Source of the DNA: a bacterium
GTDB lineage: Bacteria; Hydrothermota; UBA3073; JACQXS01
DNA: 60,740 nucleotides
Assembly (NCBI GenBank): GCA_030605695.1
Contig: JAUWHX010000013.1
Coordinates: forward strand, 1 to 60,740
Direction: 5' to 3'
A model generated the notes under the pieces. That model saw only the letters and a list, made by a program, of their open reading frames with translations, made no database searches and had not been told where the DNA came from. Of the stretch, positions 1-28,021 are shown one piece after another. The number at the start of each line of letters is the position of its first letter. The stretch's first letter is position 1. A program made the position numbers and the translations under genes.

Positions 1-415
1 TCATCTCCCGGAAGTTCAACAAGAGTTATCTTTGGGGTCGCCTTTTCTATAAACTCGCTTATAAACTTCTTATTTCTCCTGAAGTTCGGGAGTTCAAGAA
101 GATAGAGCCAGCGAGCATGCGATGGATTCTCCAAATCCAACATAACCTCAATGGGCTCTTTTCTGACTTCATTTAAGGTTCTCAACAAGGCACTTCGCAC
201 CGAGAATGGCGAAATCCAATAGCCCTCCCATTTCTTCAGAACTATCCAATAGACAGTTGACAGTTGAGAGTTGAGAGTTGACAGTTTTTCGAACTTACGG
301 AATTCCTCAAGACTATGTGCGGCAATATACAGTTTAGTGGGGAAAACTTTTGAGATAAGCTTAAGTTTATCAAGATTCTCGGTGGTGGGGAATTCCTCAA
401 AAAAACTTATCCTCA
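1..415 (-). CDS. hypothetical protein, C-terminus cut by window edge (MRISFFEEFPTTENLDKLKLISKVF...)
   Basis: Read manually on the minus strand from ATG 413-415 to the window edge. Absent from the ORF track because no stop lies in the window. Carries an in-frame 5x7-nt array at 252-286. Confidence 0.5.
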
Positions 416-424
416 TAAAATAAC

Positions 425-456
425 GGGTAGAGGCAGGTTTCAAGCCCGCCCCTACC
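425..456 (-). terminator. imperfect GC-rich hairpin downstream of trxA, followed by a T-rich run on the minus strand
   Basis: gggtagaggcagg / cccgcccctacc arms with two mismatches. The minus strand then continues cgTTATTTTA. Arms resemble the GTAGGGG...CCCCTAC palindrome family. Confidence 0.5.
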
Positions 457-470
457 ATTTATCCTATAAA

Positions 471-791
471 CTATAATATAGCATCCAACTTCTTCTTGAA
501 CTCCTCCTCAGGCAAAGCTCCCACAAGTTGGTCAACTGGCTTACCGTCCTTAAATATAATACTCGTAGGAATACCACTTATTTGGTAAGTCCCTGCCGTT
601 TTTCTGCCTTCCTCCACATTGAGCTTGCAAACCTTAACTTTTCCCTCGTATTCCTCAGCAAGCTTCTCTACCACTGGTGCCATCATCCGACACGGCATAC
701 ACCAGGGAGCCCAAAAATCCACAAACACAGGAATCTCGGATTTAAGAACCTCTTGCTCAAAATTATCATCATTAAGCGTAATCTCATGCAT
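471..791 (-). CDS. trxA: thioredoxin
   Basis: 106 aa with WAPWCMPCR active-site motif (CMPC variant of CGPC). Overlaps the trxB stop by 8 nt. Confidence 0.93.
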   Translation of the reverse strand: MHEITLNDDNFEQEVLKSEIPVFVDFWAPWCMPCRMMAPVVEKLAEEYEGKVKVCKLNVEEGRKTAGTYQISGIPTSIIFKDGKPVDQLVGALPEEEFKKKLDAIL

Positions 792-1790: not shown

Positions 1791-2789
1791 TCAAGTTTTT
1801 CGTTTCCTTAGTAGCCATATAAAAAATGGAACGCCAAAGAGTGCAGTTATCACTCCGACTGGCAATTCAAATGCTAATATATTTCGTGCAACAATATCTG
1901 CCACAAGAATAAGTGTTACTCCGACCAATGGACTAAACAAAAGAAGCACTCTATGGTCTGGTCCCACAATTCTTCTTGTAATATGAGGCACCATAAGTCC
2001 AATAAATCCAATTGCTCCACAAAAGGAGACACAAAGTCCAACAAGAATAGAACTGTTAATAAATATCTCTTTTTTTAAATGCTCCACATCTACCCCTAAT
2101 GTCAATGCCTCTTCTTCTCCAAGTGCAAGAATATTTAGCTCTCTTGCTCTTCGCATAATCAATCCTGAAACCAAAATCCCTATCCCAAAAACAACCCAGA
2201 ATACCCGAAAGCTCATAGCTCCAAAAATCATTCCAAGATGTCCCATAAGCAAGTAAATCATCTCTTGAAGGTCTCGCCCTGCAAGTGACATTACAAGCAT
2301 CACAACGGATGAGGCAAACATTCCAACTACAACACCTGAAAGCAAAAGTGTATCCTTTGGTATCCTTCCTCTAAATGATGCAAGCTTATAAACTGCGAAC
2401 ATACAAATAAGAGCTCCCAAAAACGCAAATGGAGAGATAGGCAATTTCAGAAGAACAGCTAACACCGCTCCCATACAAGCTCCTCCTGATATACCAAGAA
2501 TATATGGGTCTGCAAGTGGGTTCTGAAGTATTCCTTGCAAACTTGCTCCTGATATACTAAGTGAAATTCCAGCAAATATACCAAGAAGCAATCTTGGAAG
2601 CCGTATGCCAAAAATCACTTCTCGTGGAACTTGAAACCCCATTGGTCCAAGAGCTAAGGACAAAAAGCAAACACCTAAAAAAATAATGACCAAACTAAAA
2701 GTCTTTATTAAAGTTATGGGTTTACTCATTGAATTAGACAAGTCAGCATATACTTCCTCATAATTCCTCCTTATGGCTTTAAGTACCAC
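1791..2789 (-). CDS. FecCD/BtuC-family ABC transporter permease (iron-siderophore/B12 type); no ATPase or binding protein adjacent
   Basis: 332 aa polytopic protein with typical C-terminal ELPVGVITALFGVPFFIWLL region. Start may be the internal MSKPITL (about 2729). Confidence 0.8.
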   Translation of the reverse strand: MVLKAIRRNYEEVYADLSNSMSKPITLIKTFSLVIIFLGVCFLSLALGPMGFQVPREVIFGIRLPRLLLGIFAGISLSISGASLQGILQNPLADPYILGISGGACMGAVLAVLLKLPISPFAFLGALICMFAVYKLASFRGRIPKDTLLLSGVVVGMFASSVVMLVMSLAGRDLQEMIYLLMGHLGMIFGAMSFRVFWVVFGIGILVSGLIMRRARELNILALGEEEALTLGVDVEHLKKEIFINSSILVGLCVSFCGAIGFIGLMVPHITRRIVGPDHRVLLLFSPLVGVTLILVADIVARNILAFELPVGVITALFGVPFFIWLLRKRKT

Positions 2790-3643
2790 TTGTTAGTACC
2801 ATCTCTTTCAATAATAAAATAGCCATCTTTATCGTAACCTACAAAATACTCTCCATCTGGAGACCATTTAAAAGTGCCTCCAGTATTTATATCCAATGTA
2901 TCCACATTGTCTGTGCTTAAAGAAATAAGTCTTACCTTTCCGTTTAATCCATTGCCTATACCTATAGTATCTATTGCATCGCTCCAATCTGGAGACAATA
3001 CACGAGACAAAGTATAGTCCTTTATCAAGGCGCCCGACGTGTCTACAATTTTAGGCCCTGAGGAGTACACTATCTTTCCTCCATCGGGAGACCAGGCAGG
3101 ACTGCTACCATCTGAAACTATTTTATGGTCTTCACTTCCATCACTATTCATAATCCATAATCCTTGGTCAGGTTTTTGATAAACAAGTTTAGAAGCATCA
3201 AGTGAAAAATCAGGGTCTCGCCCGGAGCCAATTTCTTTTTTATTTGTTCCATCTCGCTTAATTACATACATCACAGGATAATGCTCTCCACGATTCCAAT
3301 CTTCTATACTAAATACTATCCAATCACCCGCACTTGATGAGCTAATTCCACCCAACTGAGGACCATAATCAAATGTATTTTCTTTAATTGTAGCAATTTT
3401 CTTAAGTCCTGAACCATCATTATTTATCTCATAAACTGTTATTTTTTCATTGCCTCCTGCTTGAGCATTACCTGTTATTGTCTTCTTTATTTTCTGCACA
3501 TGATAATGTTCTAAAAACACAATTTTCCCATCGGATGTCCAGTTAGGTGCTTGCCATACTGTGATTTTATCTTCCCACTGTTTTTGACAATTGCAACCAA
3601 ATAACATAGAAATCACAAGTGTACTTAGAAGAACCTTTTTCAT
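2771..3643 (-). CDS. TolB-like PD40 beta-propeller lipoprotein
   Basis: Lipobox LFGC, repeated WSPDG-type PD40 motifs, GGAGG RBS upstream. Confidence 0.65.
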   Translation of the reverse strand: MKKVLLSTLVISMLFGCNCQKQWEDKITVWQAPNWTSDGKIVFLEHYHVQKIKKTITGNAQAGGNEKITVYEINNDGSGLKKIATIKENTFDYGPQLGGISSSSAGDWIVFSIEDWNRGEHYPVMYVIKRDGTNKKEIGSGRDPDFSLDASKLVYQKPDQGLWIMNSDGSEDHKIVSDGSSPAWSPDGGKIVYSSGPKIVDTSGALIKDYTLSRVLSPDWSDAIDTIGIGNGLNGKVRLISLSTDNVDTLDINTGGTFKWSPDGEYFVGYDKDGYFIIERDGTNKWYLKP

Positions 3644-3668
3644 AATTTTACCTCCAATTTATTTAATA

Positions 3669-3697
3669 TGTGTCTATCTGCGTTCATCTGCGGTTAA
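3669..3697 (-). repeat. 29-nt intergenic motif TTAACCGCAGATGAACGCAGATAGACACA (copy 1 of 3)
   Basis: Near-identical copies at 15092-15120 and 23179-23207. Each lies just 3' of a stop codon, in the same orientation as the upstream gene. Confidence 0.7.
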
Positions 3698-3727
3698 TAC
3701 ATTGTTTGGAATTTGACATTCCTTATT

Positions 3728-4672
3728 CTAATGTCTAAAGTGTCTTGTGTGGGTGAGTATCATTGCAACTCCCTGCTCATTGCAAGCATCTATTACTTCC
3801 TGGTCTCTTATAGAGCCACCCGGCTGAACTATTGCCTGTATTCTTTCTTTTGCCGCAAGGTCAACCGAGTCTCTAAATGGAATAAACGCATCAGATGCTA
3901 TTACTTTTGGATTCTTCTCAAGAAGCCCGAAATCCTTCATATTCTTGAATGCAATCTCAAGTGACCCCACTCTATTAGGTTGCCCACAACCCATACCAAG
4001 TGTCATTTGGTCTGTGGTAATACACATTGCATTTGACTTCACAAACTTCACAACTCGGAACCCAAATTCCATCGCCTTGCGTTCCTTCTCTGATGGCTTT
4101 CTTTGAGTTACAACTTCCCATTTGGAGAAATCAGTTGGCTCAATATCACTGTCTTGCAATAATATTCCTCCATTTATCCATCTTAATGTGCGATGTGAAA
4201 GCTCTTTTTCCATAGGAAGTTGCAATACTACTACTTTCTTCTTTTTTGCCAATAATTCTTTTGCCTCGGGAGTATAACCTGGTGCAATTATTGCACTTAT
4301 GAATATTTTAGCAATCTCCTCTGCGGTAGCACTGTCCACCTCTCTATTGAATCCAACAATCCCTCCAAATGGAGAAACAGGGTCTCCAAGATACGCATTT
4401 TTATATGCCTCAACTATGTTATCATTTATGGCAATACCGCAAGGCGTAGCATGCTTCAAGATACAACAACAGGGTTCATCAAAACTCCGAATCACACTCA
4501 AAGTAGCATCAAGGTCAAAGAAATTATTAAATGAAATCTCCTGTCCTTGTAATTTCTTAGCATCAAGCAAAGAGAGCCCATTATATCCTATTTCTTTATA
4601 AACACCTGCACTCTGATGAGGGTTCTCACCATATCTCAAATCCATTACTTTTTCATAATTTAATTTCAACAT
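3728..4672 (-). CDS. purH: AICAR transformylase domain of PurH, encoded as a separate ORF
   Basis: MDLRYGENPHQ motif, 314 aa, own GGAGGAAAA-ATG ribosome-binding site. Confidence 0.88.
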   Translation of the reverse strand: MLKLNYEKVMDLRYGENPHQSAGVYKEIGYNGLSLLDAKKLQGQEISFNNFFDLDATLSVIRSFDEPCCCILKHATPCGIAINDNIVEAYKNAYLGDPVSPFGGIVGFNREVDSATAEEIAKIFISAIIAPGYTPEAKELLAKKKKVVVLQLPMEKELSHRTLRWINGGILLQDSDIEPTDFSKWEVVTQRKPSEKERKAMEFGFRVVKFVKSNAMCITTDQMTLGMGCGQPNRVGSLEIAFKNMKDFGLLEKNPKVIASDAFIPFRDSVDLAAKERIQAIVQPGGSIRDQEVIDACNEQGVAMILTHTRHFRH

Positions 4673-5322: not shown

Positions 5323-5420
5323 AATTAGAAATTTATGGAAATTAGTAGAAATTTAGTAGAAATTACTCTCTTGCTCCTACAAATTTCTATTAGTTTCTAC
5401 AAGTTTCTATCAATTTCTAT
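5323..5420. repeat. long imperfect inverted repeat built from TAGAAAT/ATTTCTA words (hairpin family A, copy 1)
   Basis: Left arm 5323-5365 and right arm 5378-5420. A related copy lies at 31123-31209, sharing tatggaaatt.gtagaaatt ... gctacaaatttctatta.tttcta. Confidence 0.7.
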
Positions 5421-6917
5421 CTATCTCAACTTTACAATCTTTGTTGGTTTACATCCCTGTGCTTTCAGAAAATAAATACCAGCTTTTAAGGTCTTACCAA
5501 TAGTTATTGGATTTTGATTTATCAGGTAACTTGAGATAAGTCTGCCAGAAAGGTCATAAATCTGGATACTTGCTTTCCTGGTAGCTTGTTCGCAGAATCC
5601 GTTGGAATAGCTCAATAGCTTTATAGCTGTCTTCTGAGTGAATGGATTAGGATATACCTCTACTTGCAACTTGTGACTTGTTACTTGTGGCTTGTGTTCT
5701 TCTATTCCAAAGTCCAATGGCTCACTCAAAAAGGGCTCATAATACACTATCCCCCTTGTAGAATCATCATAAAAGTCCCAGATTTTCATATCAATAGTAT
5801 CATTACTCGCTGTCCCCCAGTAATTATTCCGAGCATCTATATCAAAAGAAAAATTATTATACACGACGTAACCAATAGCATAAATGTTATTACTGTCAAT
5901 AAGTGCACTATCCGAACTTGTACCTATGTATATCGCAGATTCTGTTGTATCAGTTATAGTATTATACTTAATTGTAGGTGTACCATCATTACTATAGATG
6001 CTACCACCATAGTCAGCAGAGTTACCTGTAATTGTATTACTGGTTATTGTGGATGAACCATTACTATAGATACTACCACCACGATAATCTGCAGAGTTGC
6101 CGGTGATAGTATTGCCGATTATTGTAGCTGAACCAGAACTACAGATGCCACCACCATAGTCAGCAGAGTTACTTGTAATTGTATTATCGGTTATTGTGGG
6201 GAACCCACGAGTACAGATGCCACCACCATAAGAACTACCACCACCAGAATTTGCAGAGTTGCCGGTGATGGTGTTACCAGTTATTATAGGTGAACCAAGA
6301 AAACTCTTGATGCCACCGCCACCCCAATAAGCTGAGTTGTCTGCAATAGTATTGCCAGTTATTGTAGGTGAACTATAATAACTATTGATACCACCACCCC
6401 ACTCAGCATAGTTTCCTGTGATGATATTTCCAGTAATCATGAGTGAACCATAACTAAGAATGCCACCACCAAAATTAGCAGAGTTGTTAGAGATGATATT
6501 ATATTCTATCACCAGTAAGCTTGCAGTAGAATCAAATATAGCAGATTTTCCGGCATACTCAATTCTACAATAACATAGACTACCAGCAGATGCGTCTTTA
6601 AACCAGAGCCGAGACCATCTTTTTGTGGTATCCAGAGCACTTATCAGGATTGAATCACTCTCAATCCCAAGAGCATTTAGAGTTCCATATATCATTATAT
6701 ATTTCATTGAGTCCAGCCGAACCTCCACCCCGGGCTCAATTGTCAGGATAACCAACGAATCCACATATACATTTTCCTCAACAACATAAGGGCTGTTAGC
6801 TTTTGTCCACGCGGTATCTGATGTAATATGCCCACTCACATAAGTAGTATCTGCATATACCACGCTATGCGAGATGTTACCAATTATAGCAAACACTACA
6901 AACATAAATTGCTTCAT
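5421..6917 (-). CDS. secreted right-handed beta-helix repeat protein with T9SS C-terminal sorting domain
   Basis: Signal peptide, many ITGNTITGNSA repeats, C-terminal YPNPF...IYDLSGR...GIYFLK motif, AGGAGG RBS. Confidence 0.8.
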   Translation of the reverse strand: MKQFMFVVFAIIGNISHSVVYADTTYVSGHITSDTAWTKANSPYVVEENVYVDSLVILTIEPGVEVRLDSMKYIMIYGTLNALGIESDSILISALDTTKRWSRLWFKDASAGSLCYCRIEYAGKSAIFDSTASLLVIEYNIISNNSANFGGGILSYGSLMITGNIITGNYAEWGGGINSYYSSPTITGNTIADNSAYWGGGGIKSFLGSPIITGNTITGNSANSGGGSSYGGGICTRGFPTITDNTITSNSADYGGGICSSGSATIIGNTITGNSADYRGGSIYSNGSSTITSNTITGNSADYGGSIYSNDGTPTIKYNTITDTTESAIYIGTSSDSALIDSNNIYAIGYVVYNNFSFDIDARNNYWGTASNDTIDMKIWDFYDDSTRGIVYYEPFLSEPLDFGIEEHKPQVTSHKLQVEVYPNPFTQKTAIKLLSYSNGFCEQATRKASIQIYDLSGRLISSYLINQNPITIGKTLKAGIYFLKAQGCKPTKIVKLR

Positions 6918-6921
6918 AATA

Positions 6922-7590
6922 TTACCTCCTTTTGTTTTTCAAACTTGATAAATATATTAGCTCTAATTCTTTTGAATTAATTGCATCCTCTCCCCCATTC
7001 CTCAAACATTCAAGTGCAAGAGAAGCAATCCATACTCCTCTTGGAGAATCTGGATTTGGAGAGATAAAGTGTGCTCGCTTGCCAAGTTTTTTCTGTATCA
7101 AATCCCGGTAAATCTTTACTCCATTTCCCACAAATATATGTTCACCTTTAAGATTTTCAAGAAACTCCTCTATATCCACTGCCAAATAAGAAGTAATCCT
7201 CTTTCCATCTGGCTCATAACTTGCAGTATAAACATTCCCACTCCTGGCATCTAAAATAGGAGTAATCTTGTGTTGTGCAAAAGGAATACCAACAACAAAA
7301 GCATCAAGAGTCGGGACTCCAATAACTGGCTTCTTAAACCCCATTCCAAGTCCTTTTGCAGTAGCCAGCCCTACTCTGAGTCCAGTAAAAGACCCAGGAC
7401 CTATACTTACACCAATCCCATCAATCTCCTCAGGATTCGGCACTCGTTTTCTTATTATCTCAATAATATTTTCACTCTCAGGAACACCTGAATTTATATA
7501 ATAATCAAAAAACACTCTATCATTGACTGTTGACTCTATAACACCTATTCCTAATGCGAAAGTTGAAGTCTCAATACCCAATATTCTCAT
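6922..7590 (-). CDS. tsaB: tRNA t6A37 biosynthesis protein TsaB
   Basis: MRILGIETST start. The track ORF extends to 7665 through intergenic repeat words, so I chose the internal Met26. Confidence 0.8.
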   Translation of the reverse strand: MRILGIETSTFALGIGVIESTVNDRVFFDYYINSGVPESENIIEIIRKRVPNPEEIDGIGVSIGPGSFTGLRVGLATAKGLGMGFKKPVIGVPTLDAFVVGIPFAQHKITPILDARSGNVYTASYEPDGKRITSYLAVDIEEFLENLKGEHIFVGNGVKIYRDLIQKKLGKRAHFISPNPDSPRGVWIASLALECLRNGGEDAINSKELELIYLSSLKNKRR

Positions 7591-7648
7591 TGCTTTCAAG
7601 TCAAAAAACGAGCTTCGTGGTAATGGTTCGTGTCCGTAACAGTCTTTT

Positions 7649-8089
7649 CTACAACCACGAACCACAGTTACGGTTCACGAGTATTTCTCTTGTATTCTCA
7701 CTCAATACTTTAAGTTCAATGCGGATAGAATTTTCAGGGAGTAATCCTTTTGCCTTTTCCGCCCACTCTATAACACATACACCTTGTCCATAGGATTCTC
7801 CGAAAGAGCCAAAAAACTCCTGAATCCCAAGAGCCGTGATATCATTCAAATTATTTACTCTATATAAGTCTATATGATAAATAGGGAATTTACCTTTATA
7901 TTCATGCATAAAGACAAAACTTGGGCTCTTAACTTGCTCCTTGCATTCCAACCCTTTTGCAATTCCTTTTACAAGGACAGTCTTTCCTGCTCCAAAATCT
8001 CCATACAAAGCTATAATATCCCCTTTTTTAAATTTCTTGCCGAGTTGTTCCCCAATTTTCTTTGTTTCTTCTTCACTGTTGGAAATCAT
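7649..8089 (-). CDS. tsaE: tRNA t6A37 biosynthesis ATPase TsaE
   Basis: GDFGAGKT P-loop, 146 aa. The last ~10 codons (LVNRNCGSWL) run into heptamer-word repeats. Confidence 0.85.
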   Translation of the reverse strand: MISNSEEETKKIGEQLGKKFKKGDIIALYGDFGAGKTVLVKGIAKGLECKEQVKSPSFVFMHEYKGKFPIYHIDLYRVNNLNDITALGIQEFFGSFGESYGQGVCVIEWAEKAKGLLPENSIRIELKVLSENTREILVNRNCGSWL

Positions 8090-8123
8090 ATTTTTAACAT
8101 ACCGATGTTTCCGAGAAAATCAA
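8087..8123 (-). promoter_or_regulatory. putative leaderless sigma70-type promoter of tsaE
   Basis: TTGATT(8118-8123)-16-TATGTT(8096-8101)-6-ATG. Confidence 0.45.
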
Positions 8124-8245
8124 GAAAAAAGATTCACTGCAGAGAACACAGAGTTTACAGAGAATTGAAAAATTTAAGATTTAAAGATTGCAGATTGCTA
8201 TTGTGGGGGGGGTGAGTTCAAGGGTTCAAGGGAATTGAGAAATTA

Positions 8246-9046
8246 TTACTTTATTGCATCTCTTAAAAGCTGAACGCCTGAAGAATCACCCAATAACATA
8301 AGAGAATGAGCGGCTTCAACTCTTACTTTCCAGCTTTTATCAAATAAACTTTCTTTTAAAATAGAGATAGCCGAAGAGTCGTCTATCTCACCAAGGGCTC
8401 TTGCAGCAGCAGCTCGAACATTAGAATTATCATTTTTTAAAGCATCTTTTAAAAGAGGAACAAATCTTTTATCCTTAAGCCCTCCAAGAGCTTCAATTGC
8501 AATCTTTTTTTCTTGAATATCAGCAGATAAAACACCATTCTTTAGTGTCCTGCGTGCAACTTGTTCTGGAGCACTTACATAAATACACCACCCAATCGTA
8601 CCTATTACTACAATTGCCCCTATGATTATCCACAATATTTTCATACCCTTTCGAGACTTATGAAGCATACTCCTTGCTTGAACAAGCTTAGGATTAATTT
8701 CCTCGGTAAGGCGAGGATTAAGTTTTATCACTTCTTCATATATATGGACGGCTTCGCTCCATTTGCAAGCAATAATAGCTTCTTCCCCCTCATTTATTTT
8801 ATCAATGATTACTTGCTCTTTGGAAGTTACACGTTCAAGATGTTCAAGAATCTTGTCCTGAGGCACCGGAAGTTCAAGTGCACGTTTATATTCTTCGGAT
8901 GCTTTTGCATATTCAAATTGGGCTTCAAATTCAAGCCCATTTTTTATAAATTCATTTACTTTCTCATACTCTTTGATATCCACACCACAGTTTCCACAAT
9001 AAGTCCAATCTTCTAATATATCGATTCCACAATAGAGGCACTTCAT
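8246..9046 (-). CDS. zinc-ribbon / coiled-coil / single-TM / HEAT-repeat protein
   Basis: N-terminal CxxC...CxxC ribbon (MKCLYCG...YCGNCG), one TM (ILWIIIGAIVVIGTIGW), C-terminal PBS-lyase-type HEAT repeats. Confidence 0.7.
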   Translation of the reverse strand: MKCLYCGIDILEDWTYCGNCGVDIKEYEKVNEFIKNGLEFEAQFEYAKASEEYKRALELPVPQDKILEHLERVTSKEQVIIDKINEGEEAIIACKWSEAVHIYEEVIKLNPRLTEEINPKLVQARSMLHKSRKGMKILWIIIGAIVVIGTIGWCIYVSAPEQVARRTLKNGVLSADIQEKKIAIEALGGLKDKRFVPLLKDALKNDNSNVRAAAARALGEIDDSSAISILKESLFDKSWKVRVEAAHSLMLLGDSSGVQLLRDAIK

Positions 9047-10164
9047 TATTTTACCTCCTTCTTAATTCTTAGTATGCTCTCCGAAGCGGCAATTCTTACT
9101 CTTGCATCAGTATCATTTTTCATCATATCTTCTAATACTGGAATAATACTTTTATCTCCAATTTTTCCAATAGCTTTTATTGCTTTGTATCTTATACCTC
9201 TACGAGAGTCCTTAATAGCATTCTTCAACTCACCTATGCCGGCTGGGTCTCCTGCCTCTGCCAATGCAATCGCTACTTTGAGTTTTTCATCTGCGGAGCC
9301 AGAAGCAAGTAATTTACGAAGAAGTGAAATACTCCTTTTATCTCCCATCTTCGCAAGTGTAAAAGCAGCTTCCCGACTCACACTACTTTCTTCGCTTCCA
9401 AGTAATCTCCTCAATGGAGGGATGGAAGTAACTCTTCCAACTCTTCCTAATGCTTGTATTGCTTTGATTTTTTCTCCAACCTCTTTCCCCTCAAGAGCTG
9501 AATGCAACACCTTTAATCCTTCTTCCTCACCTATCTTTGCAAGAGCTTCAGCTGCCTCACGTCTTACTGCAGGTTTCTTTTCTTTTAAGTTTTCTTTCAA
9601 AAGAGAAATTGAACTTTCTTCTTTTATCTCACCAAGAGTTTTAATGGCTGAAACTTTCATTGCCTCCCTTTCTTTTTTATTCAAAGAAAGAGGCGGTGGA
9701 GCAGTTCCTACACCTTCTTTTTCCGCAATTCTGATTTCTTCAAGCTCTAAACCTTTCTTTTTCTTGCCTTCCTTTCTTTTTCTTGCCAATTCAGCTCTTT
9801 GTTTAGCTCCCGAAGGCAATTCTTTAAGCAAAGGAGCAGGTGTTTCCATACGCTTTTCCAAAGTATCTCTTTCAAGTGAAATACCCCCCTTTTCTCCTCC
9901 AAACCGTGTAGATGCAATACCTTTAGTATAAACTTTCTTTCCCATAATATCCTCAGATAGAGTTTTCTCCTTTTGTGATTTTTCTTTCTTAAATGCTTTC
10001 TTTTTGGCCTTAACTTTACTCTTGAGCGATACAGTAGTATCGGACTTTTCCTTCTTGGATTTCTTTTTCTTGGATTCTTCCTTTGCCTCTAATGTAAAAG
10101 ATAGAAGACAGAAGACAAGAGACAAGAGACAGAAGACTTTTATTTTGCTGATTCTGTATCTCAT
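9046..10164 (-). CDS. secreted or anchored Lys-rich HEAT-repeat protein
   Basis: Signal-like N-terminus, KKKSKKEK-rich linker, about 6 HEAT-like repeats (ALG.IG...IP.L). Stop and start overlap the next gene by 1 nt. Confidence 0.7.
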   Translation of the reverse strand: MRYRISKIKVFCLLSLVFCLLSFTLEAKEESKKKKSKKEKSDTTVSLKSKVKAKKKAFKKEKSQKEKTLSEDIMGKKVYTKGIASTRFGGEKGGISLERDTLEKRMETPAPLLKELPSGAKQRAELARKRKEGKKKKGLELEEIRIAEKEGVGTAPPPLSLNKKEREAMKVSAIKTLGEIKEESSISLLKENLKEKKPAVRREAAEALAKIGEEEGLKVLHSALEGKEVGEKIKAIQALGRVGRVTSIPPLRRLLGSEESSVSREAAFTLAKMGDKRSISLLRKLLASGSADEKLKVAIALAEAGDPAGIGELKNAIKDSRRGIRYKAIKAIGKIGDKSIIPVLEDMMKNDTDARVRIAASESILRIKKEVK

Positions 10165-10183
10165 ATTGTATTTTCTTCTTTTA

Positions 10184-11746
10184 TTATATAAACTCGAAAA
10201 TCAATTTGCAAGTATTTAATTTCAAAATTTCATCTTTATCTTTTATCAGTTCTTTTAATACAGGCATAGCTTTTCTTTTACCACATTTAAGCATCACAAG
10301 ACCTGCATATAAACGTTCATACTTCTCTGTGGAATTTAATGCTTTTTCAACTTCTTCCATCACTGTTTTATCTTCAAGTTCCATCTTTGAAAGTGCTCCC
10401 CAACATCTTCTTCTTATAATATTTGCAGATGGACTAAATTCAACAATATCTTCATCTCCTCTTCTATTAATTATCCCCTTAGCAATATAAAATCCATTAA
10501 TTTCAGGTATTTCCTTAACTTTCATCATTGTTTGAGACTCACCATTCATAAATTCTTCCCACAGGATTCGAGATATAGCCACCGAGTCTTGCGGAGTTAA
10601 ATCAGTGCTAAATTCATTTAATAAAAAAGCAGTAAGAGCTCTTATATCAGTCGCAGAGTCCCAAAGCAAGTCTTTTACCAAAGGAACCCAACTTTCCTCA
10701 TGCCACCCCATCATCCTTTTATTTCCAAGTAAATATATGGCATATAATCCTTTAACTCTCTTCTCATACAATTCGCTCTTTAATATCTCTTCTATTGTTG
10801 GTATACCTACTGAATACCCTAAATTGAATAACAAAACTGCAGACGCTATCCTCAAACTTTCATTATTCTCATTCAAATAAACTACGAGTTCCGGAATAAT
10901 TGTAGTATCACCAAAATCTACCGCACACCAAGCTGCAGCAATTATAGAAGCTACACTCCTTTCTTCGTATATTATCTCGCTCAACTTTTTCACAGATTGA
11001 ACCTCACCAAGTCCAATCAAAGCTGATAAAGAATAAACTCTCTTTTTTTCATCGCCACTATTTGTAAGCACCTCAAGTACCGGAATACCAGTCTTATTTC
11101 CACGCCAACCTAATATAAGAGCGGATGAATTCTTTATCTCCAAATTCTCTGAACCTAAAAGTGTCTCAAGCCCTCTTTTTGCCATATAAGAAAGTGTATT
11201 AGTATATCCGAAAAAAGTGCCTACTAAACCAACAATAATTAAAATCCCAATTCCTAAACATATTTTTTTAAACTTCCATTTTAGATGAATTTCAACTAAC
11301 TTTAATTTATTCATTATATCTTCATCATTAGGAAGTAATTCCTGAACCTTGAGAAAGGATTTCTTTGCTCGCACAAGATGAGTTTTGAAATATTGCTCCC
11401 CCTTATATCGTTGTTCATCTATTATCTTTATCTTCTGAATTACGGCATCCAATAGTTTCGACGCCTCCTCAAGCATCACAGGAGGACCTTTTATCTCTTC
11501 GTACCGAGCTTTAGCTTCCTCGTATTTCCAACTTTGTTCAAGTTTCTTACCATCTTCTAAAAGTTTTTTGCCTTCTTCATATTGAGCTATATCAAGACCA
11601 CAAGACTCACAAATATCCTTAAGAAAAGGTATTTTTCGCTTGCAACCGGGGCACTCCTTAAGTAAAAGAGTTTCACAATAAATACAATATTTCACACCTT
11701 CAGGTAATTCCCGTTCGCACTTTGGACATCTTATCACTTTTTCCAT
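10184..11746 (-). CDS. double zinc-ribbon / coiled-coil / single-TM / HEAT-repeat protein
   Basis: CPKCERELPEGVKYCIYCE...CPGCKRK...CESCG ribbons, one TM (ICLGIGILIIVGLVGTFF), HEAT-like C-terminal half. Confidence 0.7.
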   Translation of the reverse strand: MEKVIRCPKCERELPEGVKYCIYCETLLLKECPGCKRKIPFLKDICESCGLDIAQYEEGKKLLEDGKKLEQSWKYEEAKARYEEIKGPPVMLEEASKLLDAVIQKIKIIDEQRYKGEQYFKTHLVRAKKSFLKVQELLPNDEDIMNKLKLVEIHLKWKFKKICLGIGILIIVGLVGTFFGYTNTLSYMAKRGLETLLGSENLEIKNSSALILGWRGNKTGIPVLEVLTNSGDEKKRVYSLSALIGLGEVQSVKKLSEIIYEERSVASIIAAAWCAVDFGDTTIIPELVVYLNENNESLRIASAVLLFNLGYSVGIPTIEEILKSELYEKRVKGLYAIYLLGNKRMMGWHEESWVPLVKDLLWDSATDIRALTAFLLNEFSTDLTPQDSVAISRILWEEFMNGESQTMMKVKEIPEINGFYIAKGIINRRGDEDIVEFSPSANIIRRRCWGALSKMELEDKTVMEEVEKALNSTEKYERLYAGLVMLKCGKRKAMPVLKELIKDKDEILKLNTCKLIFEFI

Positions 11747-17663: not shown

Positions 17664-19118
17664 AAATTGAGTTTTGAATTATCCAAAAAAGGAAGAAAGG
17701 CATATAGTTTGCCTCCTTTGGATGTTCCTTTGACAGAAGAATTGCCGAAGGAATATTTGAGAAAGAGTTTGCCGAGGTTACCTGAACTCAGTGAGCCAGA
17801 TGTTATTCGTCATTTCACAAATCTTTCTGGTCTAAATTATCATATAGAACGAGGAATGTATCCGCTTGGCTCCTGCACTATGAAATACAACCCAAAAATA
17901 AATGAAGAATTCGTCCGACTATCTGGACTTGCGAACTTACACCCTCTACAGCCAGAAGAAACCGTTCAAGGAGCACTCACAATTCTCTATGAGCTTCAGA
18001 ATTATTTAGCTGAAATTAGTGGAATGGATGAGGTATCGCTTCAACCAGTTGCAGGAGCTCATTCAGAACTTGCATCCCTTTTAATCGTGCGTAAATACTT
18101 TGATAAAAAGGGAGAGAACCGCACGAAAATTCTTGTCCCAGACTCATCACATGGGACAAACCCTGCCTCATCAGTGCTTGCTGGATTTAAACCTGTGGAA
18201 GTAAAATCTGATGCTCGTGGACTCATTGAGCTTAAAGCTCTATCTGAATTGATGGACAAGGAAGTCGCCTGCGTAATGCTGACCGTTCCAAATACACTTG
18301 GATTATTTGAGCAACAGATTGAGGAGATTGCGAGAATCGTTCATCAGAGTGGAGGGATTCTGTATCTTGATGGAGCTAATTTAAATGCATTTTTAGGAAT
18401 TGTAAAGTCCAGAGATTTAGGATTTGATATGATACATTTTAATTTGCATAAAACATTCGGCACTCCACATGGAGCAGGAGGGCCCGGCGGAGGAGGAATA
18501 GGAATTGTCCAAGAGCTTTCTCCATTTTTGCCAGTGCCAAGAATCGTCAAAACACCGACAACCGATAACCGACAACCGATAACCGATTCGTATGAGTTAT
18601 CTTATGATTTTCCAGATTCAATAGGCAGGGTTCATGGATTTTATGGAAACTTTGGTGTTTGCGTGAAAGCTTATGCTTATATAAGAATGCTGGGTGCTCA
18701 GGGAATGAGAGAAGTGTCTGAAAATGCGATATTAAATGCAAATTACTTGATGTCGGAGCTAAAAAAGTATTATGAGCTTCCATACAAGGGACCCTGTATG
18801 CATGAGTTTGTTCTCTCTGGAGACCGACAGGCAAAGCTTGGAGTTAAGACTCTGGATATTGCAAAGCGGCTTCTGGATTATGGGTTTCATCCGCCGACAA
18901 TTTATTTCCCTCTGATAGTGCACGAGGCATTGATGATTGAGCCCACAGAAACAGAGAGCATCGAGACATTAAATGAGTTCAGGGATGCGATGATAAAGAT
19001 TGACGAGGAGGCGCGGACTAATCCGGAGATAGTAAAAAGTGCTCCTCATAATACACCAGTCCGCAGACTTGATGAAGCACGAGCAGCAAAGGAATTAGAT
19101 GTCAACTTTTATAAATAA
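17661..19118 (+). CDS. gcvPB: glycine dehydrogenase (decarboxylating) subunit 2
   Basis: NLHKTFGTPHGAGGPGGG PLP-lysine region. Start set at MKLSFELSKKG. An in-frame heptamer array lies at 18554-18588. Confidence 0.9.
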   Translation: MKLSFELSKKGRKAYSLPPLDVPLTEELPKEYLRKSLPRLPELSEPDVIRHFTNLSGLNYHIERGMYPLGSCTMKYNPKINEEFVRLSGLANLHPLQPEETVQGALTILYELQNYLAEISGMDEVSLQPVAGAHSELASLLIVRKYFDKKGENRTKILVPDSSHGTNPASSVLAGFKPVEVKSDARGLIELKALSELMDKEVACVMLTVPNTLGLFEQQIEEIARIVHQSGGILYLDGANLNAFLGIVKSRDLGFDMIHFNLHKTFGTPHGAGGPGGGGIGIVQELSPFLPVPRIVKTPTTDNRQPITDSYELSYDFPDSIGRVHGFYGNFGVCVKAYAYIRMLGAQGMREVSENAILNANYLMSELKKYYELPYKGPCMHEFVLSGDRQAKLGVKTLDIAKRLLDYGFHPPTIYFPLIVHEALMIEPTETESIETLNEFRDAMIKIDEEARTNPEIVKSAPHNTPVRRLDEARAAKELDVNFYK

Positions 19119-19440: not shown

Positions 19441-19460
19441 AAACACAAGATTACAATATA

Positions 19461-19628
19461 AAAGATAGGGGTATCCGTATGAGAGATACTGGTGTCAGTA
19501 TAAGAGATACTGGTGTCAGTATAAGAGATACGGATGTCAGTAGAAGAGATACGGATGTCAGTATAAGAGATACGGATGTCAGTAGAAGAGATACGGATGT
19601 CAGTAGGAAGGTAGGGGGATTCCCCCTA
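19461..19628 (+). repeat. tandem array of 6 full plus 1 degenerate 21-nt units (AGAGATACGGATGTCAGTAKA) followed by hairpin TAGGGGG-att-CCCCCTA (family E, copy 1)
   Basis: Units hand-indexed at 19482, 19503, 19524, 19545, 19566 and 19587. Hairpin at 19612-19628. Second copy at 41705-41805 on the opposite strand. Confidence 0.85.
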
Positions 19629-19683
19629 GTATACTGGGGGAAACTCCAAATAACTCGCAGAGAGGTCTGCGAAAGGAGGTATT

Positions 19684-20856
19684 ATGAGTAGATTTTTGAT
19701 GGTATTGGGTGTAATCTTTATGGTTACCCCAATCAGAGCTGAGAAGCCATCGAAACTTGGCAAGGTGAAGATTGAGATTGAGGCATTCGAAGACCGCACT
19801 ATCTATGCAAAGACTCGGATTGTGCCACTTAAGAATCTACGGGCTTCAGAGATTGAGCCATTCATAAGGTCAAGGTTATCTTCGTATGGGGCGGTGCAAG
19901 TCAATGATGCGGCTAATACATTGATAATTACGGATATGGAGCCAAAGCTATCTGACCTTGTGAAGCTGGTTAAAGGGCTGGATGCCAAAGGGATTAAGGA
20001 ATTCGTGCGGCTTGAGACCCAGACCCTTCATCCAAAATATGTGCTTCCATCCAAGCTTGATTCTATTCTTATAAGGAATTTATCGCCTGATGGGTCAATT
20101 TATGTGGATGACGACCTGAATGCAATTATGATAACAGATGTGAGTTCAAGGATTGAGCGTATAAAAGAGATTCTTGCAAAGCTTGATGCTCCACCCAAAC
20201 AGGTGTTGATTGAAGGCAAACTCGTGGTAGTAGATTCAGAATACTTGCGCAAGCTTGGTTTACATCTCCCATCAGTTATTCAGGGTGCTTTGGAAAGAAC
20301 AAACATTGGTGTATCTCTCCACGAGCAGACATACAAACGAGATTATGACGATGATGAGGATGACTACAACAGAGACTATGCCCATACTGATGAAATATAT
20401 AATGTAAATGCAAATGTTTCAATAGACTTGCCAACTCTTATCTCACTTATTGACCAGTTTGTTGAGGAAGGTGGCGCAAATATCACATCGTTCCCAAGTA
20501 TTGTAATTCAGAATAACAAGAGGGGAGAAATCTATATTCCAGACAATGTTAGACTTTCTCTCTTGCCTCATATAGGAGCAGGTGATTTTACAAACCTTGA
20601 TTTGGAATTCAAGGCTGGGGGAAATGGTGTCAATACTACTGTTATGGTGAAAGATGGCAAGACATTTGCACTTGGGGGGATAGAATATATACAGGAAAGT
20701 GTTGTAGAGAAGGGAATACCGATATTGCGGTCTATTCCTCTTTTGGGATGGCTATTCAAAAGAGAAACAAAGGTAACAACGAAAAAGGAGCTTGTTGCTC
20801 TGATAACGCCACATATTCTTGAATTCGGTGAGTCGCCAAAGATAAAGAAGAAATAG
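19684..20856 (+). CDS. short secretin-family outer-membrane protein (two N-domains plus compact secretin C-domain)
   Basis: Signal peptide, NolW-like N-domains (ANTLIITDMEPKLSDLVKLVKGLD; LNAIMITDVSSRIERIKEILAKLD), C-terminal IPILRSIPLLGWLFK...ELVALITPHIL, AGGAGG RBS. Confidence 0.7.
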   Translation: MSRFLMVLGVIFMVTPIRAEKPSKLGKVKIEIEAFEDRTIYAKTRIVPLKNLRASEIEPFIRSRLSSYGAVQVNDAANTLIITDMEPKLSDLVKLVKGLDAKGIKEFVRLETQTLHPKYVLPSKLDSILIRNLSPDGSIYVDDDLNAIMITDVSSRIERIKEILAKLDAPPKQVLIEGKLVVVDSEYLRKLGLHLPSVIQGALERTNIGVSLHEQTYKRDYDDDEDDYNRDYAHTDEIYNVNANVSIDLPTLISLIDQFVEEGGANITSFPSIVIQNNKRGEIYIPDNVRLSLLPHIGAGDFTNLDLEFKAGGNGVNTTVMVKDGKTFALGGIEYIQESVVEKGIPILRSIPLLGWLFKRETKVTTKKELVALITPHILEFGESPKIKKK

Positions 20857-24824: not shown

Positions 24825-24825
24825 T

Positions 24826-26661
24826 ATGCCTGGAGTTTTAGGAATTATTCCAAGTAGGGGCAGTTCGCGAACTGCCCCTACAATAGAAAATATGATTAAT
24901 TCACTAAAACATTCTAAAGAATATAAAGTAGATCAATACAAGAAGGAATCTTTCGCTATAGCAAGAGTGCATCTTGGGATATTCAATCCCGAGCCACAAC
25001 CAATATTTAATGAAGATAAGAGTCTTTGCATATTTATGGATGGCAAGATTTATGGCTACAAGGAAAAGATACTTGAGCTTAAACAAGCTGGGCATAAGTT
25101 CAAAGTTAATAATGAGCCTGAATTTTGCTTGCATTCTTATGAGGAGTACGGGAAGAAATTTGTTAAAGAGCTAAACGGGATTTTCCTGATAGTTATTTAT
25201 GACTTTAAAGAAGAAAGTTTGTTGATTGCTAACGATAGATATGGTTTAATTCCTCATTATTATGCGGTAAATAATAACAGATTCTTATTTGCTCCTGAAA
25301 TAAAAGCAATTTTTCAGGATAAAACTTTTAAAAAAGAACTGAATGATGAAGCAATCGCGAATTTTTTTGCTTTTATGGAACCTCTTGGAGATAAGACTTT
25401 TTTGAAAAAAGTTAAAATACTCCCTCCGGGGTCAATACTTATTTACGAGGGAAAGGAAATAAAAACAGAAAGATACTGGAATTTTAGGTATAATTCAGAT
25501 TATAGTATTACTGAAGAAGATTTTGCAAATCGGTTAGTAGAAACTTTCAAGAGAGCTGTTAAGATACGAATTGAAGATAATTATCGTTACTGTGTTTCTC
25601 TCTCAGGAGGGTTGGATTCGAGGTCAATTATTGCTGCAATAGATAGTAAGAAAAGAAAGGATATTTACGCATTTACTTTTGGGCCGTTGGATTCAGACGA
25701 AGTTAAAATTGCTAAAAAAGTAGCAGAAAAATCAGGGACACACTTTCTCCATAGAGATATTCCTCCTAATATGATTATAGACAATGCAGAGGAAAACGTA
25801 TGGCTTAGCGAGGGAAAAGCCAATATAGGAAATAGTTTTATTTATCCTCTACATAAATCAATTAGAGATATTGTAGATGTAGTTTTTGATGGATACGAAT
25901 TGGGTGTCTTACTTGGAGGACAGTATTCCACCCGAAAAGTATCTGGATGCAGAAATAGAAAAGCACTTATTAACAGACTAATTAAACGAAGGATTTTTTC
26001 AGAAGAAAAGTTTAAGGAACTTTTCACTGTTAGTTATTACCCAAAGGTTAAAGAAAGAGCATTGGAGTCTTTTGAAAAAGAATTTGATAAAGCTAAAAGT
26101 GATTCTCTCGGGAACGAGTGTGACAACTTTTTCTTAAGCACTTATACTAGCTTCTCTGCTCCAATAGGAGAGGTTTTAACAAGAGATGCAATAGAAGTTT
26201 CATTCCCCACAATTGATAACGATTTCATAGATATTATACTCAAAATTCCTGCCAAATTCAGATTAAATCACAGAATTTATCGCAAATTCCTGAAAAAGCT
26301 ATCTCCAGAATTGGCTAAAATACCTTATAATAAAACAATGGTGCCTGTTGATGCACCTTTATTTTTATGGAAAGCTGGTATGGTTTATCAAATCGGCAAT
26401 GAGAGAATCAAGAAACTAATGCGGAGACCTATCAAACGAAGCTATGTAAATTTTGATGAATGGCTCCGCGTAAATAAAAGATGGAAAGATTACTTTAGAG
26501 ATTTATTATCAAGTAAAGATGCTCTCTCTCGTGAATATTTCAATCAAAAGTATATTGAGAAGCTAATCCGGGAGCACGAACAAAACAAAAAAGACAACTC
26601 ACAGAAACTCTTATATCTTGCAACCTTTGAGCTTTTCTTGAGAAAGTTTCAAGAAAAATAA
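24826..26661 (+). CDS. asparagine synthetase B-like amidotransferase lacking the N-terminal catalytic Cys
   Basis: SLSGGLDS PP-loop and AsnB-like N-domain, but the protein begins MPGVLG instead of MCG. Confidence 0.8.
   Translation: MPGVLGIIPSRGSSRTAPTIENMINSLKHSKEYKVDQYKKESFAIARVHLGIFNPEPQPIFNEDKSLCIFMDGKIYGYKEKILELKQAGHKFKVNNEPEFCLHSYEEYGKKFVKELNGIFLIVIYDFKEESLLIANDRYGLIPHYYAVNNNRFLFAPEIKAIFQDKTFKKELNDEAIANFFAFMEPLGDKTFLKKVKILPPGSILIYEGKEIKTERYWNFRYNSDYSITEEDFANRLVETFKRAVKIRIEDNYRYCVSLSGGLDSRSIIAAIDSKKRKDIYAFTFGPLDSDEVKIAKKVAEKSGTHFLHRDIPPNMIIDNAEENVWLSEGKANIGNSFIYPLHKSIRDIVDVVFDGYELGVLLGGQYSTRKVSGCRNRKALINRLIKRRIFSEEKFKELFTVSYYPKVKERALESFEKEFDKAKSDSLGNECDNFFLSTYTSFSAPIGEVLTRDAIEVSFPTIDNDFIDIILKIPAKFRLNHRIYRKFLKKLSPELAKIPYNKTMVPVDAPLFLWKAGMVYQIGNERIKKLMRRPIKRSYVNFDEWLRVNKRWKDYFRDLLSSKDALSREYFNQKYIEKLIREHEQNKKDNSQKLLYLATFELFLRKFQEK
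24854..24881. repeat. perfect 28-bp palindrome GTAGGGGCAGTTCGCGAACTGCCCCTAC inside the asnB-like CDS
   Basis: Hand-checked as two perfectly complementary 14-nt arms. Encodes SRGSSRTAPT in frame. Confidence 0.9.
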
Positions 26662-26662
26662 C

Positions 26663-26690
26663 TTGACAAAAGTAAATTGGGAAGTATAAT
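26663..26690 (+). promoter_or_regulatory. sigma70-type promoter with short SD-containing leader
   Basis: TTGACA-16-TATAAT, then AGGAGG and ATG at 26708. Confidence 0.6.
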
Positions 26691-26707
26691 ATGAAAAAGG
26701 AGGTAAA

Positions 26708-28021
26708 ATGAAGAAAGGATTGTTTTTCTTTATGTGTGTTTCTTTAGTTGTTCCTGGAGTCTGCAAAAGTGGTTCTAATTGCTGGGTTGCTAATTATGGT
26801 GATTCTACAGTTGTGAAGCTCAGAGCAACTGGAACGAGACTTTGCGAACTTGATGCAGTAGGATTAAGTTTAGAGCCAACGTCATTAGATATAGATCTTC
26901 AAACTGGATGGTGCTGGGAAGCAAGCACTTATATGAATAGAACCCACAGAATTTCCCCTGATTGTGATAGTGTTAAGGAACATACTTTCGCAAATGCGAA
27001 TCCATCTACTCCCTGTGTAGATGGAAATGGATATTGCTGGTATGTTTTTATGTACACCAAAAAGTTAGTGAAGGTTGACGAAAACTTTGCTATAATTAAG
27101 GAAATACCTGACCCCGGCCTCGGCATGTTTGTTTTTCCCACTGCCGCTGCTATAGACCTTGGAGAGCAAGCTCTTTGGGTGACTGAAAATGACCAAATGG
27201 AGGGACAAGGATCTATATCAAAGTTTTTATGCTCCGGGACCACTTATCAATTCAGAAAATCTGGATTTAAGGTATCTTACTTAGATGTTGACCAAGCCAC
27301 TCATTACTGCTGGGTAGCTGACAATGGAAATAATCAAGTAGCAAAAATCTCCTCAGACGGAAACACAATAACAAGATTTGATGGATTCAACGCACCTTCC
27401 TGTGTATCAGTTGACCCATATACCCATTGCTGTTGGGTTGCTGATGAATTAAATAATAGAGTAGTGAAACTTTCAGAAGCAGGAGTAGAACTTTGTGTGT
27501 CAACTGATTTTAACCATCCTTTTGCAGTAGCAGCGGACCCACTGGACCACGGCTGTTGGGTTTCTGACAAAGGTAATAACAGAGTAGTAAAACTTGATGC
27601 TGACTGTGGGACTTCATTTACAGTTCCAGGATTCCTTAAACCAGCTGGACTTGCTATAGATACTATTGCAGTTGGAATTGAAGAATCTGAAAGGATTACA
27701 CCAAATAGTTTTTCTCTCTTACAGAATTATCCTAATCCATTTACTCAAAAAACTGTTATAGAGTTTACCGTTCACGGGTCACAGTTCACAGACAAAAACC
27801 GCCAACCGTTAACTATCAACTGTCAACTCAGAATTTATGATTTGACGGGGCAACTGGTCAAAACCCTTTTTGACTCTCAACTCTCAACTCTTAACTCTCA
27901 ACTTTCTGTAAGCTGGGATGGGAAAGATGAATCTGGCAAGAAAGTAGCAAGTGGAATTTATTTCTATAAATTAGGGACAGATAACTATACAGCAACAAAG
28001 AAGATGCATTTGATAAGGTAA
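26708..28021 (+). CDS. secreted NHL/beta-propeller repeat protein with T9SS C-terminal sorting domain
   Basis: Repeated CWV(A/S)D.GNN.V.K motifs and a YPNPF...IYDLTGQLV...WDGKDESGKKVASGIYFYKL C-terminus. Confidence 0.75.
   Translation: MKKGLFFFMCVSLVVPGVCKSGSNCWVANYGDSTVVKLRATGTRLCELDAVGLSLEPTSLDIDLQTGWCWEASTYMNRTHRISPDCDSVKEHTFANANPSTPCVDGNGYCWYVFMYTKKLVKVDENFAIIKEIPDPGLGMFVFPTAAAIDLGEQALWVTENDQMEGQGSISKFLCSGTTYQFRKSGFKVSYLDVDQATHYCWVADNGNNQVAKISSDGNTITRFDGFNAPSCVSVDPYTHCCWVADELNNRVVKLSEAGVELCVSTDFNHPFAVAADPLDHGCWVSDKGNNRVVKLDADCGTSFTVPGFLKPAGLAIDTIAVGIEESERITPNSFSLLQNYPNPFTQKTVIEFTVHGSQFTDKNRQPLTINCQLRIYDLTGQLVKTLFDSQLSTLNSQLSVSWDGKDESGKKVASGIYFYKLGTDNYTATKKMHLIR

Follow-up and report, generated by a model that had tools for sequence, protein, structure and literature searches.

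Intragenic heptanucleotide tandem arrays in a candidate division WOR-3 bacterium

Heptanucleotide arrays and their host genes

The contig JAUWHX010000013.1 (assembly GCA_030605695.1) was analysed over 60,740 nucleotides, a stretch referred to here as the window. It belongs to a clade named as candidate division WOR-3, now the phylum Caldifarciminota, and contains tandem arrays of 7-nt units that are embedded in protein-coding genes. Arrays were called with Tandem Repeats Finder (TRF) on the whole window, together with direct reading of six regions. The arrays and their host genes are the following.

252-286, minus strand: heptanucleotide array, TRF 5.0 copies, in a partial coding sequence (3-458) without Pfam domain
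5662-5696, minus strand: heptanucleotide array of 4-5 copies (TRF 5669-5696, 4.0 copies), plus-strand unit ACTTGYR
5421-6917: host of the 5662-5696 array, a beta-helix protein with a type IX secretion system (T9SS) sorting domain (Pfam)
10098-10137, minus strand: heptanucleotide array, TRF 5.7 copies, plus-strand units AAGACAG/AAGAGAC
14305-14336, minus strand: heptanucleotide array, TRF 4.6 copies, units ATTGCTA/ATTGATA, encoding PIINNQLAISNV
14393-14425, minus strand: heptanucleotide array, TRF 4.7 copies, plus-strand unit AACTCTS, read antisense by the gene, encoding RSTEFRVESSELK
14191-15081: host of the 14305-14336 and 14393-14425 arrays, a FlgD_ig/Por_Secre_tail protein (Pfam)
18554-18588, plus strand: heptanucleotide array (TRF 18554-18587, 4.9 copies), units ACCGACA/ACCGATA with a period-14 substructure
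17553/17661-19118: the GcvPB host gene, true start about 17661, stop 19118
27762-27791, plus strand: degenerate heptanucleotide array, TRF 4.3 copies with 73% matches, absent from the list of the initial annotation
27797-27831, plus strand: weak period-7 tract, AACCGCC AACCGTT AACTATC AACTGTC AACTCAG, encoding NRQPLTINCQL before an IYD motif
27873-27906, plus strand: heptanucleotide array of 4.4-5 copies (TRF 27873-27903, 4.4 copies), unit AACTCTC read in sense, encoding DSQLSTLNSQLS
26708-28021: host of the 27762-27906 arrays, with a T9SS sorting domain and a below-threshold match to the Vgb_lyase family (Pfam)

The initial annotation, made from the sequence letters alone, had described period-7 arrays embedded in frame in genes, and this description is borne out by TRF, by the map of open reading frames (ORFs) and by shuffle and Markov controls. 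All nine arrays lie in frame within long ORFs, in a window of which about 91% is ORF, and those called by TRF score 73-92% matches at 4.0-5.7 copies. A scoring scan of the window returned six arrays at period 7, whereas the other periods between 4 and 14 gave none, and neither did 20 dinucleotide-shuffled sequences. With a chain defined as at least three units of which adjacent ones differ at no more than one base, the window holds eight chains; 30 simulations with an order-2 Markov model averaged 0.23 chains and never yielded more than 1. Similarly, 19 or more of 28 lag matches were reached by 11 scanning windows at lag 7, compared to 0-3 for lags 4-13. The window thus contains genuine period-7 arrays, far in excess of chance, and it is enriched for no other short period. 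The tract at 27797-27831 had also been listed as an array, but it is weakly periodic: its lag-7 score is 19/28, neighbouring units are mismatched at 1-3 of their 7 bases and the tract is missing from the TRF calls. Scans with Rfam and for tRNAs identified no known RNA families.

The encoded peptides agree with those first given, namely KLSTLNSQLSTV, HKPQVTSHKLQV, the hydrophobic core of a signal-like peptide and DSQLSTLNSQLS. In coding sense the array at 252-286 reads AACTGTC AACTCTC AACTCTC AACTGTC AACTGTC and yields KLSTLNSQLSTV; homologues of this partial coding sequence (about 50% identical) have a variable segment of roughly equal length opposite the array, and hence there is no net insertion. 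The array at 10098-10137 encodes VFCLLSLVFCLLSF, the hydrophobic core of an N-terminal signal-like peptide in a HEAT-repeat protein (9046-10164, Pfam). The unit order ABBAA said to be common to 252-286 and 10103-10137 is indeed present at both, but it is not kept in the orthologue, and adjacent pairs of variant units are common generally. The array at 18554-18588 gives PTTDNRQPITD within GcvPB.

The YPNPF signature of the T9SS sorting domain occurs in only three proteins of the window, and all three carry arrays, together 5-6 of the nine. One array lies in the linker before the domain, and the others are located between YPNPF and IYD/ILD or just before WDG. In this linker, HKPQVTSHKLQV is encoded at 5662-5696 directly before the YPNPF start of the C-terminal domain, position 5662 being the start of a fifth, poorer unit beside the TRF-called 5669-5696. 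The same beta-helix protein contains tandem repeats of 72-75 nt and 147 nt at 5987-6264, which correspond to the turns of its right-handed beta-helix (Pfam Beta_helix) and seem to be protein-level repeats of the usual kind. In the protein 14191-15081, the array at 14393-14425 lies between YPNPF and the ILD/IYD motif and that at 14305-14336 directly before WDG. In the protein 26708-28021, the degenerate array at 27762-27791, whose unit AGTTCAC is the reverse complement of AACTGTG, encodes FTVHGSQFTD; alignment to the related protein P0124 of locus L208 reveals an 11-aa extra segment here after YPNPF. The array at 27873-27906 precedes WDG, and at this site the closest relative has an unrelated, non-periodic segment that is 2 aa shorter. 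Related sorting domains with arrays are encoded in the loci L208 (11038-11064) and L087 (7536-7556). The arrays had been placed in loops before IYD and WDG; the positions before the motifs are correct, but the segments are poorly conserved strand-plus-loop segments including first strands, not loops only. T9SS C-terminal domains are removed after export. Sorting domains may be favoured hosts because of this cleavage and of the weak sequence constraint outside a few motifs.

Distribution and turnover of the arrays in relatives

Syntenic DNA of relatives was obtained through GcvPB homologues. The loci L001, L002, L208, L209 and L210 share about 87-94% nucleotide identity with the window, L003 and L084 about 80-85%, and L085, L086 and L087 about 62-72%. 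The background consisted of 1.36 Mb of loci from 80 other genomes, relatives that were at most 60% identical among the GcvPB matches listed. A T9SS protein of the window clusters at >90% identity with MCK4306833.1 from a candidate division WOR-3 bacterium. Chains of at least three units number 24 per 170 kb (0.14/kb) in the clade versus 15 per 1360 kb (0.011/kb) in the background, an enrichment of about 13-fold, and a period-5 control reveals no such difference between clade and background. Six of the eight arrays in an earlier background scan came from one Zixibacteria locus. Both the difference in density and this concentration of background arrays indicate that the tendency is specific to some lineages. 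The Zixibacteria locus L014 (SURF_9) holds six heptanucleotide arrays within 21 kb (5598-12041), mostly near gene ends; its units include GGCTCTC/GGCTGTC, with a C/G alternation as in AACTCTC/AACTGTC of the window.

The site in gcvPB provides the most detailed series. The array faces a 9-residue gap in the Thermus P-protein (1wyt_B), at the boundary between two Pfam domains. An AlphaFold2 model of GcvPB predicts the array, with low confidence, as a coiled loop that caps a beta-hairpin (residues 298-310, predicted local distance difference test score about 60; strands 294-299 and 309-314). The relatives read as follows at this site.

L085: AAAATCA AAAATAA, no array
L086: AAAATCA AAAATGA, no array
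L087: five AAAATCC-type units, ending AAAATGA ATAT as in L086
L003: (AAAATGC)x4
L001: AAAATGC array broken by 18 nt containing CAACGGAT
Window: (CAACCGAY)-type units x5
L084: (GTYACAA)x4

The window unit CAACCGAT (the CCGAYAA unit) matches CAACGGAT of the L001 interruption at 7 of 8 positions, a likeness that points to probable turnover of units in place. The inserts of 30, 33, 36 and 48 nt are all in frame. Relatives carry unrelated peptides at this one site, and five strains (P0002-P0006) have an identical array peptide. The succession from a two-unit proto-repeat in L085 and L086 through expanded arrays to a new unit in the window fits expansion and contraction by slipped strands and misfits the insertion of a preformed module.

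Alignment of further orthologues, as advised with the initial annotation, revealed a difference in unit number and, at gcvPB, presence and absence of the array, but no frame-shifting polymorphism. The difference in unit number (three units) concerns the HEAT-repeat protein, whose array in the orthologue of the closest relative, L001, is exactly 21 nt longer (7 aa), the sole size of a pure unit change that preserves the frame. The arrays at 14305-14336 and 14393-14425 have the same number of units in L001 at about 10% nucleotide divergence, with point substitutions only; L003 has a non-periodic segment of equal length at the sorting-domain sites of 14191-15081. No frameshifted orthologue or allele was encountered in any comparison, and every length difference keeps the frame. 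From these alignments the arrays appear moderately dynamic over species-level divergence, without hypermutability.

Arrays are also found in other genes of the relatives. The sister genome L208 contains 8-nt arrays, AGAGTTTA/AAGGGTTC, at at least six sites within 3 kb, both intergenic and genic. Two of these arrays form in-frame inserts of GcvT, and the protein is 443 aa long in L208, whereas it has 376 aa in L209, a near-identical strain, and 359 aa in the window. A heptamer array of AGTCCMC occupies another GcvT site in L208 and L084, and the phosphoglucomutase gene of L086 has a perfect in-frame (CTCAAAT)x4.9 array. In GcvT and phosphoglucomutase alike the arrays occupy stretches that orthologues lack. 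Out-of-phase arrays in housekeeping enzymes are hence a trait of the lineage, which argues against a switch function. L208 further has a 1.2-kb insertion (2746-3794), absent between 20857 and 20877 of the window, with an ORF of 242 aa without Pfam domain; direct arrays of 8-nt units, TAAGAGTT/GGAGTTTA, with about nine copies each, border the insertion at either end and belong to the octamer family of the adjacent gcvT inserts.

According to the initial annotation every array had exactly five units. This number depended on hand-chosen indexing: copy numbers are 4.0-5.7 in the window and 3-8.7 in relatives, where chains comprise 3-6 units. In sets not selected by pattern, the counts of arrays from three units upwards are 11, 7, 4 and 1 in the clade, 45, 25, 16, 4 and 3 in metagenome loci, and 112, 61, 9, 6 and 8 in viral loci. 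A mode at 4-5 units appears in pattern-seeded sets because three perfect units were required there. A fixed module of five units (35 nt) is not supported, since sizes decay from three units in the unbiased sets. The share of arrays located in ORFs of at least 450 nt declines from 52% at 3-5 units to 30% at six or more and 17% at nine or more. About five units would therefore be the upper size tolerated inside a gene, with selection as the likely cause of the ceiling, and a reader of mostly coding sequence would then meet arrays of "about five". Variant units often stand in adjacent pairs (a bump at run length 13), as expected from duplication of single units.

One family of units, AACTSTC, recurs at 252-286 (sense), 14393-14425 (antisense) and 27873-27903 (sense), and in degenerate form at 27762-27831. 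It is thus present at 3-5 arrays of the window, and at least five other units coexist with it in the approximately 60 kb of genome covered. As the unit is read in sense in two genes and antisense in a third, the underlying process acts on DNA and is not a selection of peptides. Metagenomes contain at least 120 stretches of (AACTSTC)x3, at GC contents of 0.21-0.67, and more than 80 metagenome AACTSTC arrays revealed no shared flanks, conserved termini or target duplications. The motif was rejected as universally special, as AACTCTC and an arbitrary control heptamer are about equally frequent in viral contigs (44 versus 36 stretches), with 4 and 12 for two other units. The unit ACTTGTG of the 5662-5696 array also builds the gcvPB array of L084. 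Some viral contigs have one heptamer array at 4-5 dispersed sites, similar to TAACTGA in Beggiatoaceae (PMC4679880, in part).

Other repeats and hairpins

The 7-nt words of the arrays were thought to fill the intergenic hairpins as well. Array units are, however, not over-represented outside arrays, and the hairpins use other words, 9-11-nt and 21-nt units. Long imperfect intergenic hairpins lie at 5326-5421, 15533-15634 and 31121-31209, each arm consisting of tandem 9-11-nt units: TAGAAATTnn facing nnAATTTCTA, and CACGAATTA facing AATTCGTGT. These hairpins had no match in Rfam.

An intergenic 21-nt tandem array with the unit TATAAGAGATACGGATGTCAG is located at 19457-19605 (7.1 copies), and the family occurs again in opposite orientation at 41720-41796, 22 kb away. 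At the first of these loci, L001 (11800-12042) and L208 have 10.9 copies of a 21-nt array, and the three 7-nt thirds of the unit are dissimilar. Another 21-nt array, of 13.6 copies, extends over 33073-33368 with an inverted repeat TTACAC...GTGTAA in each unit. It lies in a predicted ORF (32940-33443, minus strand) that would encode the 7-residue repeat DSHECxx; the syntenic 21-nt array of L208 (15890-16124) has a different unit and would encode DGTFLPS.

Palindromes are found both inside and between genes. The perfect palindrome GGGGCAGTTCGCGAACTGCCCC at 24857-24878 is in frame near the N-terminus of an asparagine-synthase-like gene and has a related copy at 41137-41164. At the same site L208 (about 8140-8180) has a different palindrome, GGGACAC...GTGTC, so that one hairpin is swapped for another inside the gene. 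A hairpin element resembling repetitive extragenic palindromic sequences or miniature inverted-repeat transposable elements, GTAGGAGCA...TGCTCCTAC, occupies 41618-41680. An element related to it is present in L001 and L208 opposite 19637-19684, where the window lacks a copy, which suggests that it may be a small mobile palindromic element. Lastly, rpsT (40065-40415, minus strand) encodes an S20 protein with a C-terminal extension of about 35 aa that derives from 15-nt repeats (KPKVT/KPKAT) at 40080-40154 and is conserved in L208. These repeats were considered as a period-7 array and excluded, as their period is 15 nt (KPKVT).

Origin of the arrays and related repeat systems

It is fairly probable that the arrays are heptanucleotide microsatellites specific to the lineage, born by slippage and filtered by selection inside genes. 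The 7-nt arrays would arise and turn over in place by slipped-strand mispairing, an event that we infer, or by short tandem duplication, in a host lineage (WOR-3, Caldifarciminota) that seems unusually prone to them. Survivors would be arrays that keep the frame open in tolerant segments such as signal-peptide cores, linkers, hairpin loops and poorly conserved parts of sorting domains. Arrays exceeding about five units would be purged owing to too frequent frameshifts, which would leave arrays of about 28-40 nt in genes. Of the common generating process envisaged in the initial annotation, the action on DNA stands and slippage is favoured, but the fixed-size module is abandoned, given that sizes fall from three units.

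Several observations weigh against slippage as the full explanation, for which the evidence base is about 60 kb of this genome and the assembled loci of relatives. The arrays of the window have 4-5 units with no convincing three-unit array, which is odd for purely geometric sizes (n=7). AACTSTC occurs in three unrelated genes within 28 kb and in both coding orientations, and its words are not common elsewhere in the window; protein homology cannot account for this recurrence, and slippage from random seeds would not predict it. Finally, several arrays replace sequence at about equal length without visible similarity to the ancestral tract: site 4 of GcvT in L208 compared to the window and L003, the partial coding sequence (3-458) compared to its homologues, and the sorting-domain core of 26708-28021 compared to P0124, two proteins with about 97% identity over the rest. 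If slippage acted alone, these cases would call for an insertion and then a deletion that made up for it. Such replacements could result from insertion plus in-frame deletion or from recombination with diverged alleles. Gene conversion of the 26708-28021 core from the two other sorting domains of the window was considered and rejected, as there was no convincing donor.

A rival is a copy-and-paste process, in which arrays or units would be copied between loci and overwrite a short tract. The means could be ectopic template switching, gene conversion from one array to another or a tiny mobile element of the sort of the cyanobacterial small dispersed repeats. It would accommodate the recurrence of AACTSTC and the replacements of equal length, and likewise the ACTTGTG arrays in both the T9SS protein of the window and gcvPB of L084, the L208 octamers spread over intergenic and in-frame gcvT sites, and the viral contigs with one heptamer array at dispersed sites. 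We nonetheless consider such copying unlikely: the metagenome AACTSTC arrays lack conserved termini, flanks and target duplications, AACTCTC is not privileged over the control unit, array sizes are continuous and not quantised, and a local proto-repeat explains the gcvPB arrays. Rickettsia palindromic elements and cyanobacterial small dispersed repeats are presumably mobile, and each consists of a single conserved element in dispersed copies, palindromic or with a length of 21-27 nt; the latter were reportedly the subject of work by Elhai and co-workers in 2008. Like these elements, the arrays are short repeats tolerated in frame in conserved genes, to which they add lineage-specific peptide segments. 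In contrast, the arrays of the window are tandem 7-nt repeats without conserved ends, and the gcvPB site derives from a local proto-repeat. No conserved element with defined ends was found; sharp replacement patches do exist, yet gcvPB shows a graded expansion.

The patches could also be the filler of break repair, if a double-strand break or stalled fork in a gene led to local loss of sequence and reiterative synthesis on a short template left a tandem patch of about 30-50 nt, of which only in-frame survivors are seen. Patches do replace ancestral sequence at equal or slightly greater length in genes that are otherwise 90-97% identical, and where conserved genes of the window and of L001/L208 have hyper-divergent patches, most of these consist of tandem arrays or palindromes. 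This scenario is very unlikely, however, as recombination with diverged alleles could mimic the replacement, and the gcvPB proto-repeat series and the clean three-unit difference are more simply explained by slippage.

A role in phase variation, by which hypermutable frameshift switches would turn T9SS cargo proteins on and off, was put forward in the initial annotation and is very improbable indeed. In Haemophilus influenzae, the 7-bp repeats upstream of hmw1A/hmw2A are an example of a contingency locus. Phase-variable contingency loci are simple sequence repeats (SSRs) in coding or promoter regions of host-adapted pathogens (see also PMC8262952). The arrays resemble them in that their unit length is no multiple of three, that some host genes encode surface or secreted proteins, and that 5-6 of the nine lie in or beside sorting domains of T9SS cargo proteins, of which the window encodes just three and whose secretion would be blocked by loss of the domain. 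Contingency loci are, however, long, near-perfect, hypermutable and variable in populations, whereas the window arrays are short and imperfect (4-5 units) and either stable or changing only in frame; those of 14191-15081 keep their unit number at about 10% divergence. None of the orthologues compared is frameshifted, the gcvPB array peptide is the same in the five strains, ORFs are depleted of long arrays, and arrays also reside in gcvPB and, in relatives, in gcvT and phosphoglucomutase, where switching makes no sense.

Selection at the protein level is scarcely credible as the origin. Three 7-nt units encode a 7-residue repeat that might be favoured, e.g. LSTLNSQ with Leu at heptad a/d spacing; AACTCTC arrays indeed give L-x-x-L-x-x-x, and metagenome ORFs read the unit in sense at 38:1. 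This strand bias is nevertheless due to TGA stops on the other strand, the antisense AACTSTC array at 14393-14425 gives an unrelated peptide, the peptides are shorter than two heptads, and peptides at the one gcvPB site are unrelated across relatives.

Among known systems, the closest are long SSRs. Heptanucleotides are described as outnumbering every other class of long SSRs with units of 5-11 nt in the majority of genomes surveyed, with a proposed link to polymerase slippage (Mrazek et al. 2007, as cited in parts of PMC4679880 and PMC4692102). Related heptamer repeats are the short tandemly repeated repetitive (STRR) sequences of Calothrix (Mazel et al. 1990), GGGAATC in Xanthomonas and GGGGAYT in Nostoc (PMC4692102, in part). 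The arrays share with these the short 7-nt tandem direct repeats, of at least three head-to-tail copies beyond chance, the lineage-specific enrichment and the variation in copy number and units between close relatives. In contrast, the known families are mostly intergenic, and all nine arrays of the window are in frame within genes, including one of a conserved enzyme; intergenic location is typical of the described families and not a strict criterion. The arrays are heptanucleotide SSRs of a known class, in a new lineage and almost entirely intragenic. A literature search retrieved no relevant report on heptamer repeats in WOR-3 or Zixibacteria or on these unit sequences.

A second comparison concerns the TAACTGA repeats of marine Beggiatoaceae, Cyanobacteria and some Bacteroidetes, which are located mainly just upstream of start codons and for which translational regulation has been proposed (MacGregor 2015; PMC4679880, in part). 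Some sets lie in ORFs at the protein periphery and encode 7-residue repeats (LSVISYQ); according to the same article, the mechanism of their dispersal is not known (PMC4679880, in part). TAACTGA and the AACTGTC units of the window have AACTG in common, and intragenic sets exist in both. Unlike TAACTGA, the window has several coexisting units, none of them upstream of a start codon, and its arrays lie within conserved domains.

One would expect genes to lose microsatellites with a unit that is no multiple of three; in this uncultured phylum they remain in frame, even in conserved enzymes of metabolism. Between relatives of 90% identity, the arrays alter the shape of hairpin loops, signal peptides and secretion-tag domains. 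They thus offer a natural series for the birth of new peptide segments by slippage and for the size limit of out-of-phase repeats under selection. For annotators it follows that such tracts are real and not assembly errors, and that an out-of-phase repeat in the gene of a surface protein need not mean a phase-variation switch. A bolder reading, which we regard as decidedly unlikely, is that WOR-3 and some neighbours such as Zixibacteria have a distinctive mutational regime that repeatedly writes 7- or 8-nt arrays over tracts of 30-50 nt in conserved genes. The units would come from a small repertoire specific to the genome and would be copied from locus to locus on a template, and not by local slippage alone. 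If true, this regime would represent a new kind of very small mobile or templated DNA that proteins tolerate, and a steady source of lineage-specific protein loops.

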